The notes: a model not told the origin generated them from the sequence alone. Counted from the stretch's first letter, positions 4,784 to 26,469 are shown. The stretch: DNA of 64,000 bases from Patescibacteria group bacterium (GCA_028716665.1 JAQUPP010000002.1:267717-331716), one strand, 5' to 3'. Numbers and translations: made by a program.

Positions 4784-6181
4784 ATGTCAAGCATAAATCA
4801 AAAAATTTTTCTCGCTTATGATATTCGGGGAATATACCCGAAGGATTTTAATGAAGACGCGGCCTATAAAATAGGTCGTGCTTTTGTTGATTTTCTTTGT
4901 TCCAAATTCCAAATTCCAAATTCCAAATTCAAAGTAGTTGTCGGCCGCGATTGCCGTTTGGCCGCGCCTAAAATTTTCAAGTCATTTTCTAAGGGCGTAA
5001 TTGATCAGGGGGCAAATGTTATTGATATTGGCAAAGTTCCGGTTGATGCTTTGTATTTTGCGCTCCATTATTTTAAAACTGACGCCTCGGCGATGATTAC
5101 CGCCAGTCATAATCCGCCGGAATATATTGGCATTAAAATGATGGCCAAAGATTCCAAATGTCTTTGCGCTGATTGGGGAATTCCGCAAATTAAAGAATTG
5201 GCGCTCAAGAATCAATTTATAAAAGCTAAACATCACGGCAAAGTTATTAAAAAAGATATTGTGCCGCACTATTTGAAATATATTTTGAATTTAGAAGATA
5301 TCAGTTCAATTAAACCGTTAAAAGTGGTGGTTGACGCCAGTAACGGCATGGCCGGTAAAATAGTTAAATCATTGGCGAAAAAGTTGCCCATTAAATTAAC
5401 TTGTCTTTATTGCAATCAAGATGGCTCTTTTTTAAATCATCCGTCGAACCCGCTTCTTCCCGAAAGCACGCGTGATTTACAAAAAGAAGTGATAAAACAG
5501 AAAGCGGATTTCGGATTAATTTATGACGGTGACGGAGACAGAACGATTTTTATTGACGAAAAAGGACAAGCGGTGAGCGGCGATATGCTTATTATTTTGT
5601 TTGCTTCTTATTTTCTTAAGAAAGAGCAGGGAGCGACCATTGGTTATAATTTGATTTGTTCAAAAAGCGTGCCGGAAATAATTCGAGAAATGGGCGGAAA
5701 ACCGTTGCGCACCAAAACAGGCCAATCGTTAGTCAAAGAAATAGCTAAAAAACATCAGGCGATTTTTACCGGTGAAATTTCAGGACACATTTGTTTCCGC
5801 GATACTTTTTATGTTGAATGCGGAGGATTAATTTTGCTTTTAATGTTAAAAATTTTATCAGCGACCAAAACACCGCTTTCGCAAATAATCAATAATTTTA
5901 AACGTTATTACCGCCTCGGAGAAATTAATTTTGAAGTAAAAAATAGCCAGGCAATTATTAAAAAAATAGCTGAAATATATAAAGACGGCAAACAAGATTG
6001 GTTGGACGGTTTGACCGTGGATTATTGGAGTTCTCCCGCCGTAAAGGGCGGGACAAGCTGGTGGTTTAATATTCGTCCTTCAAATACAGAGCCATTATTG
6101 CGACTGGTGATTGAAGCTGAAAATAAAGAAAAAGCAGAAGAGGAATTTAAAAAAATTAGTAGAATTATCAAAACAGCATAA
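4784..6181 (+). CDS. phosphomannomutase/phosphoglucomutase family protein
   Basis: TASHNPPEY active-site serine loop, GDGDRT metal-binding loop. Confidence 0.8.
   Translation: MSSINQKIFLAYDIRGIYPKDFNEDAAYKIGRAFVDFLCSKFQIPNSKFKVVVGRDCRLAAPKIFKSFSKGVIDQGANVIDIGKVPVDALYFALHYFKTDASAMITASHNPPEYIGIKMMAKDSKCLCADWGIPQIKELALKNQFIKAKHHGKVIKKDIVPHYLKYILNLEDISSIKPLKVVVDASNGMAGKIVKSLAKKLPIKLTCLYCNQDGSFLNHPSNPLLPESTRDLQKEVIKQKADFGLIYDGDGDRTIFIDEKGQAVSGDMLIILFASYFLKKEQGATIGYNLICSKSVPEIIREMGGKPLRTKTGQSLVKEIAKKHQAIFTGEISGHICFRDTFYVECGGLILLLMLKILSATKTPLSQIINNFKRYYRLGEINFEVKNSQAIIKKIAEIYKDGKQDWLDGLTVDYWSSPAVKGGTSWWFNIRPSNTEPLLRLVIEAENKEKAEEEFKKISRIIKTA
4901..4935 (+). repeat. heptanucleotide tandem repeat (TCCAAAT)x4 plus degenerate fifth copy inside the PMM/PGM coding sequence
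   Basis: perfect copies at 4901-4928 encoding SKFQIPNSKFK. Confidence 0.8.
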
Positions 6182-6255
6182 AAATAGAAAGGATACAAAA
6201 AGTAACGGCCGTTACAATTCGTATCATCAAAAAAATTAAATACTTACTTAATTAA

Positions 6256-6299
6256 ATAGGGGTTGCTTATTAGCAACCCCTTTATTTTTTATTTTTTTT
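6256..6299. terminator. bidirectional intrinsic terminator
   Basis: AGGGGTTGCT-TAT-TAGCAACCCCT hairpin with T-runs on both sides. Confidence 0.6.
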
Positions 6300-15670: not shown

Positions 15671-15757
15671 TGGTGCCGGAGGAGAGATTTGAACTCTCAT
15701 AAGCTTGCGCTTACAGCGCTCTGAACGCTGCGTGTATACCAGTTTCACCACTCCGGC
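15671..15757 (-). tRNA. tRNA-Leu (anticodon CAG), class II with long variable arm
   Basis: minus-strand GCCGGAG acceptor, anticodon stem CAGCG/CGCTG with loop TTCAGAG, T-loop GAGTTCAAATCTC, CCA encoded. Confidence 0.85.
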
Positions 15758-17930: not shown

Positions 17931-18746
17931 TTATTTCTTAACTGTTGCTAAATAGGTATTTTTTAATAAAAATGCGACGCTTAGCGGACCAATGCCGCCG
18001 GGAACAGGCGAAAAGTAAGAAGCTTTTAAGGCAACTTTTGGATCAACATCTCCGGCCGGTTTGTTATTAACTCGGTTATAACCAACGTCTATGACAATGG
18101 CATTTTTTTTGATTATTTCTGATTTGATAAAATGAGGTTTGCCGATAGCGACAATCACAATATCCGCTTTTTTTATTGCTGTTGGATTTTTTATTTTTCC
18201 TTTAACCAAATAAACGCATTGAGATTTTATTTTTTGGCGAATCAATAATTCGGCCAATGGCTGAGCGAAAATCGGATTCTTGGAAATAATCACCGCTGTT
18301 CTCCCTGCCTGCCGGCAGGCAGGTTTTTTTTCTTTCGCGACTTGAATCAGTTTTAAAACAGCTAAATGAGCAGGTGAAGAGAAAAGAGATTGTTTAACAA
18401 AACCGTCAACATCTTTTTCTGGCAAAATTGATTGAGCGATTAAATTTGAATTCAAATGTTTGGGAAGAGGGAATTGGATAATAATGCCGTGAACATGAGA
18501 ATTGGAATTAAGTTTTTGAATTAAATCCAAAACTTTTTTTTGGCTGACGTTATTTTTCAAATCAAAACGAACAAATTTAATGCCGATTTCTTGGGCCGCT
18601 TTTTCTTTTAATCTGACGTAAACTATTGAGCCCGGGTCTTTGCCGATTAGAATTACTGCCAAGCAGGGTTTTGTCCTTTGCCTTTTAATCGTTGTTTTCA
18701 GGTCCTGAAGTATTGTTTTGGCTATTTTTTTCCCGTTTAAAAACAT
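17931..18746 (-). CDS. folD: bifunctional methylenetetrahydrofolate dehydrogenase/cyclohydrolase
   Basis: MFLNGKKIAK...PCLAVILIGKDPGSIVYVRLKEKA N-terminus, Rossmann GKP region; TATAAT with TGG extension 6 nt before ATG (leaderless-like). Confidence 0.85.
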   Translation of the reverse strand: MFLNGKKIAKTILQDLKTTIKRQRTKPCLAVILIGKDPGSIVYVRLKEKAAQEIGIKFVRFDLKNNVSQKKVLDLIQKLNSNSHVHGIIIQFPLPKHLNSNLIAQSILPEKDVDGFVKQSLFSSPAHLAVLKLIQVAKEKKPACRQAGRTAVIISKNPIFAQPLAELLIRQKIKSQCVYLVKGKIKNPTAIKKADIVIVAIGKPHFIKSEIIKKNAIVIDVGYNRVNNKPAGDVDPKVALKASYFSPVPGGIGPLSVAFLLKNTYLATVKK

Positions 18747-18774
18747 AGAATTATTATACCAGAAAGTTAAAAAT

Positions 18775-18925
18775 AGGGAAGAGGGGCGGCCATTAGGTTG
18801 GCCGCACGAAAAGACTCCGCCAGCTGGCGGACCACTCGGACTCCGTGACGCTTTTCTTTGCGGCGCAATCTGATGGCCTAAGGGGGTAAAAAAAGGAATA
18901 TTGGGAATAATTTTGAAAAATCAAT
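18775..18925. ncRNA. GC-rich structured element (candidate small RNA), class unknown
   Basis: about 60% GC island in AT-rich DNA; nested helices TTAGG/CCTAA, GCCGC/GCGGC, GAAAAG/CTTTTC; perfect 14-nt palindrome CCGCCAGCTGGCGG; followed by plus-strand terminator. Confidence 0.3.
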
Positions 18926-18964
18926 AGCCCTGGCGACGATGCGCCAGGGCTATATTTTGTTTTC
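18926..18964. terminator. intrinsic terminator (copy 1 of a duplicated terminator)
   Basis: AGCCCTGGCG-ACGAT-GCGCCAGGGCT then TATATTTTGTTTT. Confidence 0.7.
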
Positions 18965-18967
18965 GAT

Positions 18968-19366
18968 TTAAATAATAACTGTCACCAACCAAAATCCTAA
19001 CCAGATTAGAATAATTTCGGGGATTACGGAAATAAACAGGGCGCTCTTTTTTATACCCAATTCATTGACAATGTAATCGACTTCAATAATGAATCGACGG
19101 GCAAGAAAGGCAACACCAATAATAAGAATAATAAGAACATCCAGAGAGGTTGCAAAAAAAGTTAAAAAGATAAAAACACTAAAAACAACAGCAGGTAAGA
19201 TGATAGGAATAGCAGTAGTACCAGTAAAGCAAAGTAGAATACAAGGAATAGCAAGAGTTAAACCACCCGCAGACATAACATCTCCACTTCTTAGATTTAA
19301 TGTTATAGCAAATATACTAATCACAACAATAAGACTGATAATCTCAGTCCAAATTAGTTTTTTCAT
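18968..19366 (-). CDS. multi-TM membrane protein, paralog A (MKKLIW ... LIWLGFWLVTVII)
   Basis: shares N- and C-terminal 10-15 aa and 3' flanking DNA with 19507..19926. Confidence 0.5.
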   Translation of the reverse strand: MKKLIWTEIISLIVVISIFAITLNLRSGDVMSAGGLTLAIPCILLCFTGTTAIPIILPAVVFSVFIFLTFFATSLDVLIILIIGVAFLARRFIIEVDYIVNELGIKKSALFISVIPEIILIWLGFWLVTVII

Positions 19367-19464
19367 TTTTTCTCCTTTTGTTGAATTGTTAAATAACTAA
19401 TTTAACGGTTATTATATATAAATATAATAGCAAATTTTTTGGTTTTTGTCAAGTTAAAATCAAT

Positions 19465-19504
19465 AGCCCTGGCGACGATGCGCCAGGGCTATATTTTGTT
19501 TTCG
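19465..19504. terminator. intrinsic terminator (copy 2, identical hairpin)
   Basis: identical AGCCCTGGCGACGATGCGCCAGGGCT hairpin plus T-run. Confidence 0.7.
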
Positions 19505-19506
19505 AT

Positions 19507-19926
19507 TTAAATAATAACTGTCACCAACCAAAATCCTACCCAGATTAAAAATATTTCTAATACAGCCGATATTAAAACATTTTTCTTCTTAAATCCCAGA
19601 CGTAAGACGGCCCTGAAAGAGATTAGGGCAAAAATACCGACAATAAAGAAAAGAATTGAGCGAACGATGGCGGAAGAGAAAGAAGCAAAGATGAAAAGGG
19701 CGGCGAAAGCAGAAACTAGGAAAGCCGCAGAGGATTCATAGGCAAAAAAGTCTTCTTGAATAGCGGCAAAGAATAGGGTAATAAAGCCAGACGTAAAGGC
19801 GGCGATACAGACAGAATCAGCAAGGGTAGCAAACGGAAATTTATATTTTTGAAAGTAAAACCCAATTCCAAAAATTACAATTGTAACGATAATAGCAAAT
19901 AATTCGGCCCAAATTAGTTTTTTCAT
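19507..19926 (-). CDS. multi-TM membrane protein, paralog B
   Basis: same termini as 18968..19366, divergent core. Confidence 0.5.
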   Translation of the reverse strand: MKKLIWAELFAIIVTIVIFGIGFYFQKYKFPFATLADSVCIAAFTSGFITLFFAAIQEDFFAYESSAAFLVSAFAALFIFASFSSAIVRSILFFIVGIFALISFRAVLRLGFKKKNVLISAVLEIFLIWVGFWLVTVII

Positions 19927-19940
19927 CTTTTCCCCCTTTT

Positions 19941-20183
19941 CTACTTTACTAAACCAGTTTTAATAAATATTGAAAGGCTTCCCCAGATAGTCCCAAAGAA
20001 TATCAAGAGAACACTCAGTAGTACTACTATAAACGTTATCATATTTTTTATGTTCTTATCTTTCACTTTATATATTATAAACCAATTGCCACCAAGCGCT
20101 AATCCTATTCCTGCTACCATCATACTAATTGGTATCCAAGTTGATATTTGTATATTCATTTTTCCTCCTTTTGTAAGGAACAA
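19941..20183 (-). CDS. small membrane protein (80 aa)
   Basis: two TM helices; promoter-like TTGACA motif upstream on minus strand. Confidence 0.4.
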   Translation of the reverse strand: MFLTKGGKMNIQISTWIPISMMVAGIGLALGGNWFIIYKVKDKNIKNMITFIVVLLSVLLIFFGTIWGSLSIFIKTGLVK

Positions 20184-20227
20184 AGTTTATCGATTATTAT
20201 ATAAATATTTAAGCAAATTTTTCGCCT

Positions 20228-20388
20228 CTTGTCAACCCCCTCACCAAACACTGATATATTTTTTAAAACACGAAGCCAATTTATTTCTATTTAAGGTATT
20301 TTTTTTATTTATATCAAAATTTTAAATTTAGAGATTTAAAAATACAGAGCTGAGTGTTTATCAGTGTTATAGGTGAGGGGGTCAAGTG
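20228..20388. repeat. imperfect ~30-bp inverted repeat pair flanking a 100-bp AT-rich spacer in the lon upstream region
   Basis: CTTGTCAACCCCCTCACCAAACACTGATA ... TATCAGTGTTATAGGTGAGGGGGTCAAG. Confidence 0.6.
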
Positions 20389-20526: not shown

Positions 20527-22845
20527 ATGATTTTTGGCACAAAAAAAGAATATCCGTTAATTCCTCTGCGCAATGAGGTTATTTTTCCCGGGACCACTGT
20601 TCCGGTGGTTTTTAAGAGTTCATATTCTCAAATCGCAGTGGAAGAATCTTTACACAAAGGAAGAATGGCGGTTTTGGCTTGGCGAAAAAGAAATATTCAA
20701 GGGCAAATAAGTTTGGAAGATATTCATTCAATGGGAACATTGGTGAAAATTTTGGAAAACCACAAAATGCCCGACGGAACGATTATCGCCATGGTTGAAG
20801 GTCAGGCGAGGGTGAAAATAGAAAATATTTTTCCAAAAAATGATTGCGCCATAGTTGAAGTCAGAGAAATTTTGGATGTTGAACAATTGACTTTGGAGGG
20901 CGAGGCCTTGCTTCATAATATTGAAGATTATTTTAAGAAATGCGTGGCTTTGGGAATGTCCATTCCGACTGAAACTTTATCAATTATTTTTTCCAGTCCG
21001 AAACAATCAGCAAAAATAGATTTGATCGCTTTTTCATTAAGTTTGGAAGTATCGGAAAAACAAAAAATTTTGGAAGAAATTTCTTTGAAAGAAAGATTAG
21101 AATTGGTTAATGAAGCCATTCGCCATAAATTGGAAGTTTTACAAGTGGCGAAAAAAATAGAAAAAAAGACAAATGAAAGCATTAATAAAGTTCAGCGAGA
21201 AGCAATTTTACATGAACAAATGAAAGCCATTCAAAAAGAGTTGGGAATGGGCGAGCGGGCCGATATCGCGGAATTAAAAAAGAAAATAGAAAAAGCGGAA
21301 ATGCCGGAAAAAGTCAAGAAAGTCGCTCAAGACGAATTGGAAAGATTAATCGCCATGCCTTCTTTTTCTCCGGAAATTTCTTACATCAGAACATATCTTG
21401 ATTGGCTGGTTTCTTTGCCTTGGAACATAAAATCAAAAACCGAACTTGATATTTCAAAAGCGGAAAAATTTTTAAATGAAGATCATTACGGACTTACAGA
21501 TGTTAAAGAAAGAATTTTGGAACATCTGGCTGTTTGCAAATTGGCGAAAAAAATCAGAGGACCGATACTTTGTTTTGCCGGACCTCCGGGCACCGGAAAA
21601 ACTTCAGTCGGCAAATCCATTGCTCGGGCAATGGGCAGAAAATTTGTCAGAATGTCGCTTGGCGGAATCAGAGACGAAGCGGAAATCAGAGGACATCGCC
21701 GAACTTATGTCGGAGCTTTGCCGGGCAGAATTATTCAAGGCGTTAAAAATGCCGGCGCCAATAATCCTATTTTTATGCTGGATGAAATTGATAAAATCGG
21801 AGCTGATTTCAGGGGCGATCCTTCTTCAGCTTTACTTGAAGCTCTTGATCCGGAACAAAATTTCGCTTTTTCAGATCATTATATTGAATTGCCGTTTGAT
21901 CTTTCTGATGTGATGTTTGTCGCCACGGCCAATGTTTTAGACACCATTCCGCCCGCTCTGCGAGACAGAATGGAAATTATTGAATTCCCCGGATATACGG
22001 AAGAGGAAAAATTTCATATTGCCAAAAAGTTTTTAATGCCGAAATTAATTGCCGCTCACGGACTTGATGCCAAAAAATTCACCATTACTGACGAAGCGAT
22101 CAGAGAAGTGGCCACAGGTTATACTCGCGAAGCAGGAGTAAGAAATTTGGAAAGAGAGCTGGCGAAATTATGCCGCAAAATAGCCAAGAAAATTACCGAA
22201 GATTCAAAAGAAGCCAAAAAAAATCAAGTTATCGGACCGAAAGATCTTCACCAATATCTCGGACCGATTGTTTTTCAACCTACTTTGGCCGAGAAAAAAG
22301 ACGAAGTTGGCGTGGCCACGGGTTTAGCATGGACTTCAGCCGGAGGCGAAATTCTTTTTATTGAATCCACAAAAATGCCGGGCAAAGGCAATTTGATTTT
22401 AACCGGTCATTTGGGAGAGGTGATGAAAGAATCTGCTCAGGCCGCTTTTTCTTACGCTCGCAGCCATTGCCAAGAATTAAAAATAAATAAAGATTTTTAT
22501 AAAAATTTTGATTTGCACATTCATGTTCCGGCAGGCGCCACACCGAAAGACGGACCTTCGGCCGGCGTAGCCATGGCCATTTCGCTTATTTCTTGTTTGA
22601 CTAACAGATCAACAAAAAGAGAAGTTGGAATGACGGGTGAAATAACTTTGCGCGGCAAGGTTTTGGAAATCGGGGGAGTGAAAGAGAAAATTTTAGCCGC
22701 TCATCGAGCCGGTTTGAAAAAAATAATTCTTCCCGCGGAAAATAAAAAAGATTTGGAAAAATTGCCGGAAAAAGTTAAAAAAGATTTGCAATTTATTTTC
22801 GTCAAACATATTGATGAAGCGATTAAGGTTGTCTTAAATAAATAA
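20527..22845 (+). CDS. lon: ATP-dependent Lon protease
   Basis: Walker A GPPGTGKTS, DEIDK Walker B, protease PKDGPSAGVAM serine site. Confidence 0.9.
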   Translation: MIFGTKKEYPLIPLRNEVIFPGTTVPVVFKSSYSQIAVEESLHKGRMAVLAWRKRNIQGQISLEDIHSMGTLVKILENHKMPDGTIIAMVEGQARVKIENIFPKNDCAIVEVREILDVEQLTLEGEALLHNIEDYFKKCVALGMSIPTETLSIIFSSPKQSAKIDLIAFSLSLEVSEKQKILEEISLKERLELVNEAIRHKLEVLQVAKKIEKKTNESINKVQREAILHEQMKAIQKELGMGERADIAELKKKIEKAEMPEKVKKVAQDELERLIAMPSFSPEISYIRTYLDWLVSLPWNIKSKTELDISKAEKFLNEDHYGLTDVKERILEHLAVCKLAKKIRGPILCFAGPPGTGKTSVGKSIARAMGRKFVRMSLGGIRDEAEIRGHRRTYVGALPGRIIQGVKNAGANNPIFMLDEIDKIGADFRGDPSSALLEALDPEQNFAFSDHYIELPFDLSDVMFVATANVLDTIPPALRDRMEIIEFPGYTEEEKFHIAKKFLMPKLIAAHGLDAKKFTITDEAIREVATGYTREAGVRNLERELAKLCRKIAKKITEDSKEAKKNQVIGPKDLHQYLGPIVFQPTLAEKKDEVGVATGLAWTSAGGEILFIESTKMPGKGNLILTGHLGEVMKESAQAAFSYARSHCQELKINKDFYKNFDLHIHVPAGATPKDGPSAGVAMAISLISCLTNRSTKREVGMTGEITLRGKVLEIGGVKEKILAAHRAGLKKIILPAENKKDLEKLPEKVKKDLQFIFVKHIDEAIKVVLNK

Positions 22846-26394: not shown

Positions 26395-26469
26395 GGCGTC
26401 TTCGTCTAACGATTAGGACCCATGGTTCTCAACCATGTAACACGGGTTTGACTCCCGTAGACGCTACCA
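26395..26469 (+). tRNA. tRNA-Glu (anticodon CTC) with atypical D-loop (no GG) and T-loop TTTGACT
   Basis: acceptor GGCGTCT/AGACGCT (G1-U72), D-stem GTCT/GGAC, anticodon stem CATGG/CCATG with loop TTCTCAA, T-stem ACGGG/CCCGT, A73 + CCA. Confidence 0.7.

Follow-up and report, generated by a model that had tools for sequence, protein, structure and literature searches.

Results

A tandem array of small membrane-protein genes between lon and folD

We analysed a 64-kb stretch of DNA from a Patescibacteria group bacterium (GCA_028716665.1, JAQUPP010000002.1:267717-331716; hereafter the window, whose positions are used for all coordinates), in which lon (20527-22845, plus strand) and folD (17931-18746, minus strand) bracket three small minus-strand open reading frames (ORFs) at 18.9-20.25 kb. 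Read along the minus strand, these are a 72-aa two-helix ORF (19941..20159), ORF B of 139 aa (P0001, PHE59_04410; 19507..19926) and ORF A of 132 aa (P0002, PHE59_04415; 18968..19366). ORFs A and B, hypothetical proteins according to the annotation of the 'Patescibacteria group bacterium' metagenome-assembled genome (MAG), have about five transmembrane helices each and belong to the family that is described below. As an earlier sequence-only reading had noticed, both begin with MKKLIW; the common C-terminus that it described holds to within one residue, with A ending in LIWLGFWLVTVII and B in LIWVGFWLVTVII.

All three ORFs are preceded by a AAAGGAGG-like ribosome-binding site (RBS), a strong one in the case of the 72-aa ORF. 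A promoter-like module, P1, with a beta-type 5' untranslated region (UTR), was read in the sequence at 20207..20235 on the minus strand (TTGACA, 17 nt, TTAAAT, with an upstream TG) and is predicted to drive the 72-aa ORF together with ORF B. A second promoter, P2, with an alpha-type 5'UTR, lies at 19424..19452 on the same strand (TTGACA, 17 nt, TGcTATTAT; 11 of 12 matches, with an extended -10); it is near-consensus, is the top promoter match within 12-26 kb, and would drive ORF A. The two modules are linked by repeat family D4. ORF B lacks its own promoter and begins only 14 nt past the 72-aa ORF, and the locus therefore appears to form two transcription units, one with the 72-aa ORF and B, which are probably co-transcribed, and the other with A. 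Both units terminate in the same hairpin, ATAGCCCTGGCG-CATCGT-CGCCAGGGCTAT, followed by a T-run.

The 3' ends of A and B share a near-identical block that includes the terminator

The 3' ends of the two genes lie in a direct repeat of 102 nt with 96% identity. One copy (18917..19018, minus strand) comprises the last 16 codons of A, the stop codon, a spacer, the hairpin terminator at 18924-18953 and a T-tail, and the other (19456..19557, minus strand) comprises the last 16 codons of B, the stop codon, a 16-nt spacer, the hairpin terminator at 19463-19492 and a T-tail. The near-identity of about 90 bp that had been reported from the sequence thus proved to be somewhat longer, and 83 nt of it are perfect (18917-18999 and 19456-19538); 51 nt of these are 3' non-coding (spacer, hairpin and T-tail), and the remainder is made up of the stop codon and the final 29 coding nt. 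The four mismatches (T/A, A/T, C/T and T/G) are all located at the coding edge, and identity ends abruptly on both sides. At the 5' ends, an identical stretch of 18 nt covers the start codon and five further codons (19349-19366 and 19909-19926).

The 30-nt hairpin occurs in exactly two copies in the 64 kb, where none was expected from 100 shuffles. These two hairpins are the strongest terminator-like sites within 12-26 kb, are terminator-like on both strands, and fold with a z-score of -3.7. No Rfam family was found for the repeat, the intergenic regions or the GC-rich hairpin, either in the run at gathering thresholds or in the run at E<=10. Six-frame motif scans and hidden Markov model (HMM) scans of the window found no copies, silent or expressed, beyond A and B, although the sequence-only reading had advised a search for such copies.

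The arrangement is 100% identical over 2 kb in two further MAG assemblies from other samples (GCA_028713475.1 and GCA_028690995.1). The Logan short-read unitigs L003 and L004 end 31 nt into the perfect 83-nt block, and the contigs L007 and L092, described below, start and end within repeated junction modules. Contigs that bear members of the family (L003, L004, L007, L009, L010 and L092) are mostly very short, 0.6-1.6 kb; arrays of this kind may be under-assembled and under-counted in short-read metagenomes.

Conserved ends and a variable middle are a property of the whole family

In a full-length BLASTP comparison A and B share 33% identity (E=1e-16), and the score comes from the ends. The cores alone are 22% identical over 55 aa, which is not significant (E=0.085), so the cores can very nearly be called unrelated in sequence, as had been proposed, with the reservation that the proteins are still collinear five-helix proteins according to hydropathy and a low-confidence AlphaFold model. 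The earlier description of a surface or membrane protein stands for the membrane; exposure at the surface is doubtful because the proteins of the family are 61-76% hydrophobic and have very short loops.

A word-indexed protein search with A or B returned only the query itself. An exhaustive HMMER scan of 1.84 billion representatives with a profile of A and B found 8 proteins of 111-170 aa, aligned end to end, which together with two further copies from a sister locus make up the family alignment. The conserved first helix reads MKKLIWAEL.A.IVTI..F and contains a membrane-embedded Glu; a conserved cytoplasmic Lys loop (ELKxKK) and the last helix read ELK.KK..V.IS.L.E..LIWLGFWLVT..I and contain a second Glu. 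The middle, of two or three helices, is hydrophobic, unalignable and variable in length, and in P0008 it is nearly just poly-Ala/Val. Pairwise identities are 24-64% in the ends and 12-44% in the cores, the latter being about background for such a composition. Conserved ends around a variable core are therefore a family-wide property and not an oddity of the A/B pair.

The two Glu residues are near-invariant (E8 and E124 in the numbering of B). The only member without the first-helix Glu, a 116-aa protein of the sister locus (L5_116, at 5855-6205 of its contig), also lacks the last-helix Glu, and this joint loss hints that the two work together. The predicted topology has the N terminus inside and the C terminus outside, in view of the N-terminal MKK and of the Lys cluster that precedes the last helix. 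We infer that the products are abundant, highly expressed inner-membrane proteins, in which the first and last helices, with their paired Glu, would form a core for function or assembly. The variable helices may be a spacer that tolerates drift, or they may carry an intramembrane specificity, such as immunity to or recognition of a membrane-inserting partner; neither is strongly favoured.

The layout of the unit is common to all members for which DNA is available: TTGACA-17-TAxxAT, a UTR of 40-50 nt, AAAGGAGG, ATGAAAAA and the stop codon, then a short spacer, a hairpin of the AGCCCTG...CAGGGCT type and a T-run.

The sequence-only reading had allowed that the proteins might belong to a known family with conserved ends, and this was not borne out. 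Scans of all members against Pfam, NCBIfam, PHROGs and PADLOC gave nothing above noise or at a curated threshold, a sequence-profile search of PDB gave no match at E<=1, and the literature search for the family in Patescibacteria returned nothing relevant. The AlphaFold2 model, from a six-sequence alignment, has a predicted local distance difference test (pLDDT) score of 55 and a predicted template modelling (pTM) score of 0.31, and is good for the helix count alone; the best Foldseek match of this model in PDB (EmrE; E=4.1, TM 0.28) is not meaningful. A profile search of public genome contigs with the family alignment found only the sister genome, and when metagenome contigs were searched with FolD the sister contig was the sole close relative, the other 79 loci encoding unrelated FolD proteins (34-42% identity) and no family members. 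The lineage and the family are rare in public data, and the family is an undescribed, very small and lineage-restricted one.

Several known classes were considered and set aside. An assignment to SMR/EmrE transporters fits the Glu in helix 1, but there is no Pfam match and hhalign against EmrE gave E=0.59 with one aligned column. Phage_holin_2_3, one of the best sub-threshold matches (E=0.66, 10.5 bits against a cut-off of 28.8), is far too weak for a holin. Type I toxin-antitoxin repeats (Ldr/Rdl and Ibs/Sib) encode toxins of less than about 60 aa, whereas the products here have 111-170 aa and about five helices, and no Rfam small RNA was above noise. The target of a diversity-generating retroelement was also rejected, since the genes called within about 8 kb include no reverse transcriptase, the repeat coincides with the conserved and not the variable part, and the mismatches, which in such a system would fall at adenines, are T/A, A/T, C/T and T/G. 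The 72-aa ORF, for which SLATT_5 gave a sub-threshold match seen for no other protein (E=0.015), is not supported as a core-less family member either (hhalign against the family profile, E=0.076; no match with the family HMM).

Turnover of the array between conserved flanks in a sister genome

The sister locus, L005 (JBAZMD010000024.1, from MAG SO_2017_LW4_32), is a 9.3-kb contig that carries the family member P0004 and is syntenic with the window over lon, three small genes, folD, secG and an SBP_bac_5 gene. All three of its small genes, which encode 149, 141 and 116 aa, are members of the family, each with its own promoter, RBS and terminator. In the sister genome the full-length 149-aa member occupies the place where the 72-aa ORF sits in the window. 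P1 is 90% identical to the promoter of the middle gene of the sister locus, and P2 shares 83% identity across 145 nt with the promoter and 5' end of the 149-aa gene (L5_149).

The array has turned over while its flanks were conserved. The flanks are 90-93% identical in DNA, and the array genes of the sister locus are 30-45% identical to A or B. For the flanking proteins, the amino-acid identity and the nonsynonymous (dN) and synonymous (dS) divergence between the two genomes are 98.8%, 0.006 and 0.19 for Lon, 100%, 0 and 0.23 for SecG, 94%, 0.029 and 0.36 for SBP, and 90%, 0.043 and 0.38 for FolD, respectively. The best array pairs (B with L5_141 and A with L5_149) have 40-45% amino-acid identity, dN of 0.44-0.54 and saturated dS, the core alignments being too poor for a reliable dS. 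Their cores are about 50% identical in nucleotides, where neutral drift at the rate of the flanks would leave at least 70-80%, and therefore they are not simple orthologues that have diverged since the species split. Either the cores are old paralogues or alleles, which were differentially retained or were imported, or a local process acts on them, of which none was seen here.

The 5'UTRs fall into an alpha type (A, L5_149 and P0007) and a beta type (the unit of the 72-aa ORF and B, and L5_141). The order of the two types is opposite in the two genomes, which means that units have been reordered, lost or gained. For A as for B there is, in addition, a closer counterpart in the sister lineage, so the duplication that gave rise to them predates the species split.

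The 3' segments evolve in concert within each genome

We compared 3' segments, defined as the last 45 nt of the coding sequence and 58 nt downstream. Identity is 91% between A and B and 92% between L5_141 and P0007, compared with 66-76% for any cross-genome pair; the core nucleotide identity in the same comparison is 39-59%. The terminator-promoter spacers after genes 1 and 2 of the sister locus are also 91-92% identical over about 90 nt. The segments are thus closer between paralogues of the same genome than between counterparts of different genomes, which is concerted evolution: the ends have been homogenised within each genome. Synonymous, loop and spacer positions vary between genomes (non-coding identity 70-76%) and are frozen within a genome, a pattern that gene conversion explains and that selection on the protein or on the stem alone does not.

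A population of the sister lineage is polymorphic for a whole cassette

Both of the contigs L007 and L092 come from a single assembly (ENA ERZ27247363; MEGAHIT, k=141). L007 is 100% identical to positions 5095-5841 of the sister contig. The first 141 nt of L092 are the same as those of L007 and cover unique coding sequence from the 3' part of the 149-aa gene along with terminator 1 and the -35 box; the last 141 nt are also the same and contain the last nine codons, terminator 2 and unique sequence upstream of the 116-aa gene. The middles, of about 470 nt, differ. L007 carries a beta-type UTR and P0004, and L092 an alpha-type UTR and P0007, two proteins with 41% identity overall and 31% in the core. 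Inside these divergent middles, the RBS, the ATG and the first eight codons are near-identical.

Two haplotypes, 149-P0004-116 and 149-P0007-116, therefore co-exist, and the population is polymorphic for the whole cassette. The variants in the core for which the sequence-only reading had advised a search of population or metagenome reads do exist, in the sister lineage, as different middle genes between identical flanks. Whatever the origin of the haplotypes, their breakpoints fall in conserved junction modules, and the A/B pair of the window, two adjacent divergent genes with an identical 3' module, is exactly the substrate that such events need.

Other features near the array

A GC-rich imperfect hairpin of about 92 nt (18788-18879, minus strand; minimum free energy -43 kcal/mol, z=-2.8) separates the terminator of ORF A from the -10 box of folD. 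It belongs to an insertion of about 135 nt relative to the sister contig, has no Rfam match at E<=10, and may represent either a gene for a small RNA or a palindromic element that was inserted. Within folD itself, a perfect 20-nt GC palindrome, CCTGCCTGCCGGCAGGCAGG, is located at 18304-18324 in a 21-nt in-frame insertion that adds PACRQAG and is absent from the sister FolD, which is 90% identical. Taken together, the two features suggest that small GC-rich palindromic insertions are active in this genome of 35% GC. Upstream of folD (18747-18775, and 6262-6289 of the sister contig), TGGTATAAT is identical in both genomes and ends 7 nt before the ATG, with no Shine-Dalgarno sequence; judged by this arrangement the folD mRNA looks leaderless. 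A tRNA-Leu(CAG) was found by ARAGORN at 15671-15757 on the minus strand; the Rfam run at gathering thresholds listed only the tRNAs at 26395 and 31898.

Discussion

A modular array that probably recombines at conserved junctions

The explanation that we prefer, with a probability of roughly 0.65, is that A and B are units of a modular tandem array that evolves by gene conversion and recombination at conserved junctions. The array lies between lon and folD in a small Patescibacteria group, and in each of its self-contained modules a sigma-70-type promoter, a 5'UTR and a strong Shine-Dalgarno sequence would precede the gene of a small polytopic membrane protein, with a GC-rich hairpin terminator behind it. 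The near-identity of A and B over 83-102 nt would be the trace of a recent short-tract gene conversion between anciently diverged paralogues. Two kinds of junction module, the C-terminal codons with the terminator and the terminator with a promoter -35, may serve as homology arms, and recombination at them would delete, reorder or replace whole units. Such whole-unit recombination would account for both the scrambled sister array and the two haplotypes that differ only in the middle gene. Mechanistically, this would presumably be homologous recombination of the RecA type or unequal crossing-over, perhaps supplied by DNA uptake; natural DNA uptake is widely predicted for bacteria of the Candidate Phyla Radiation (CPR) (PMC6744442). 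Of the cassette-like diversification that the sequence-only reading had suggested, the homogenised ends within the genome and the haplotypes of the sister lineage can be retained; programmed switching was not found, nor were silent cassettes in the window.

Several observations weigh against this explanation or limit it. The recombination history is drawn from few comparisons, among only two related genomes and several short contigs. Different alleles of the middle segment at a single locus were seen within a population of the sister lineage only, and the four assemblies of the window's species, compared as consensus sequences, show no variation across the locus. Instead of a true replacement, the two haplotypes could represent separate deletions from a longer array. 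Ancient paralogues cannot be cleanly separated from very fast local evolution, and comparison with the terminators of the sister locus is ambiguous as to whether the conversion tract ran from A to B or from B to A. As for function, the low AlphaFold confidence and the lack of a family or structure match provide no evidence, and the genomic neighbours of the array, which are housekeeping genes, give no pointer.

Other explanations of the conserved ends

One alternative, which the sequence-only reading had also put forward, is that a gene was recently duplicated in tandem and that the core then diverged very fast, so that the identical 3' block would be the portion yet to diverge. The tandem arrangement in the same orientation, the same helix layout and the common start and end are what a recent duplication would leave. 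It is nevertheless very improbable, as the cores have a nucleotide identity of 44-53%, which is about background, and saturated dS next to 83 perfect nt, and one age cannot give both; moreover, A pairs with L5_149 and P0007, which have the alpha-type UTR, and B with L5_141 (43-45%), so that the split of A and B predates the species split. The identical ends could instead be kept purely by selection, either on a regulatory RNA derived from the 3'UTR or on a bidirectional terminator together with a C-terminal helix that is essential, and recombination would then play no part. Purifying selection does act on that helix throughout the family, and the hairpin folds well (z=-3.7) and is terminator-like on both strands. 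Selection on the protein or on a stem, however, does not hold synonymous, loop and spacer bases fixed, and these are 100% identical within the genome and yet free to differ between genomes, the versions of the block seen so far being genome-specific; with no Rfam family matched in addition, we consider this explanation improbable. That the block is a small mobile or repetitive element, a terminator cassette like a miniature inverted-repeat transposable element or a repetitive extragenic palindrome that landed independently behind both genes, would fit its sharp boundaries, the GC-rich palindrome in a genome of 35% GC and the other GC-rich palindromic insertions nearby that are absent from the sister genome. 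Such an element is highly improbable here, because only two copies exist in the 64 kb, both at the 3' end of family genes; the block contains family-conserved C-terminal codons that are homologous in all members, including distant ones; and homologous terminators are found at the same places in the sister genome, with compensatory changes in the stem.

Programmed antigenic or phase variation of the pilE/pilS, msp2 or vlsE type, in which an expressed gene is rewritten from silent cassettes via conserved ends, shares with this locus the conserved ends and variable core, the 3' conversion tract and, in the sister lineage, a cassette polymorphism within one sample. It is an improbable reading all the same. 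Neither promoterless nor truncated copies turned up in six-frame motif and HMM scans of the window, a separate promoter, RBS and terminator accompany every copy, the genes called within about 8 kb include no recombinase, invertase or reverse transcriptase, the four assemblies of the window's species are identical, and the proteins have almost no extramembrane sequence to serve as an antigen. A collapsed or chimeric join in the MAG, finally, could be suspected from the Logan de Bruijn contigs, which break exactly inside the repeat. This is barely credible given that the identical 2-kb arrangement recurs in two MAG assemblies from other samples, that the repeat, at 83-102 nt, is shorter than ordinary reads, and that the sister genome independently has the same modular layout.

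Comparison with known systems

Behaviour of the preferred kind is known from the Hop paralogues of H. pylori. The genes homA/homB and babA/babB have conserved 5' and 3' segments and a variable middle that defines the allele (PMC2795765), and in each strain intragenomic gene conversion keeps the 3' segments of Hop paralogues in concert, while alleles are exchanged from locus to locus (PMC2795765). The family described here is similar in that the 3' segment is concerted and the middle segment allelic. Hop proteins, however, are large outer-membrane beta-barrel adhesins that are encoded at dispersed loci and whose variable part is surface-exposed, whereas the present proteins have 111-170 aa, are almost all helical and hydrophobic, and are encoded in tandem, with a junction that reaches into terminators and promoters. 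There is no sequence homology between the two (no Pfam match), and the likeness is one of evolutionary behaviour only.

The CPR-enriched membrane families (Meheust et al. 2019, PMC6744442) are likewise restricted to Patescibacteria, unannotated and multi-helix; a modular recombining array is a structure not described in that work. Those families are widespread across the CPR, in contrast to the 8 representatives among 1.84 billion found here. Neisseria pilE/pilS, Anaplasma msp2 and Borrelia vlsE also have a variable core with conserved bounds that guide segmental recombination. The present array differs from these silent-cassette systems in having no silent cassettes that we could find, full transcription units, no variation within its own species and a product that is not exposed.

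Immunity proteins offer a comparison at the level of the product. Those for pore-forming colicins and other membrane-targeting toxins are small polytopic inner-membrane proteins of 110-180 aa with three to five helices and an intramembrane helix-helix specificity; they are fast-evolving and strain-polymorphic, often form orphan immunity arrays and are sometimes encoded in tandem. An immunity-like role for the A/B family would be a functional guess from this resemblance; the array differs from such systems in that no toxin gene is nearby and no immunity family was matched in Pfam, NCBIfam or PADLOC.

Implications

A bolder proposal, speculative and on balance unlikely, is that the array is a natural cassette-exchange locus. 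Specificity would then reside in the transmembrane helices themselves, as the part that is diversified, and might for instance concern immunity to, or recognition of, toxins that insert into membranes, phage proteins or the host-cell partners of an episymbiont; the invariant end helices would provide for insertion and assembly, and the terminator-promoter junctions would be standard homology arms by which units are swapped between strains through DNA uptake and recombination.

Patescibacteria have tiny genomes, live attached to other cells and encode many unannotated membrane proteins; where fast-evolving 'interface' loci are sought in them, attention usually goes to pili and large surface proteins. 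In the present locus, which sits amid housekeeping genes, the entire set of genes differs between genomes with flanks of 90-93% identity. Should the variable helices determine specificity, diversification would take place inside the membrane and not on exposed loops, and the array would offer a way into strain-level conflict or host specificity in an uncultivated lineage. Otherwise it would still be a clean and compact model in which to follow concerted evolution and birth-and-death in a minimal genome.

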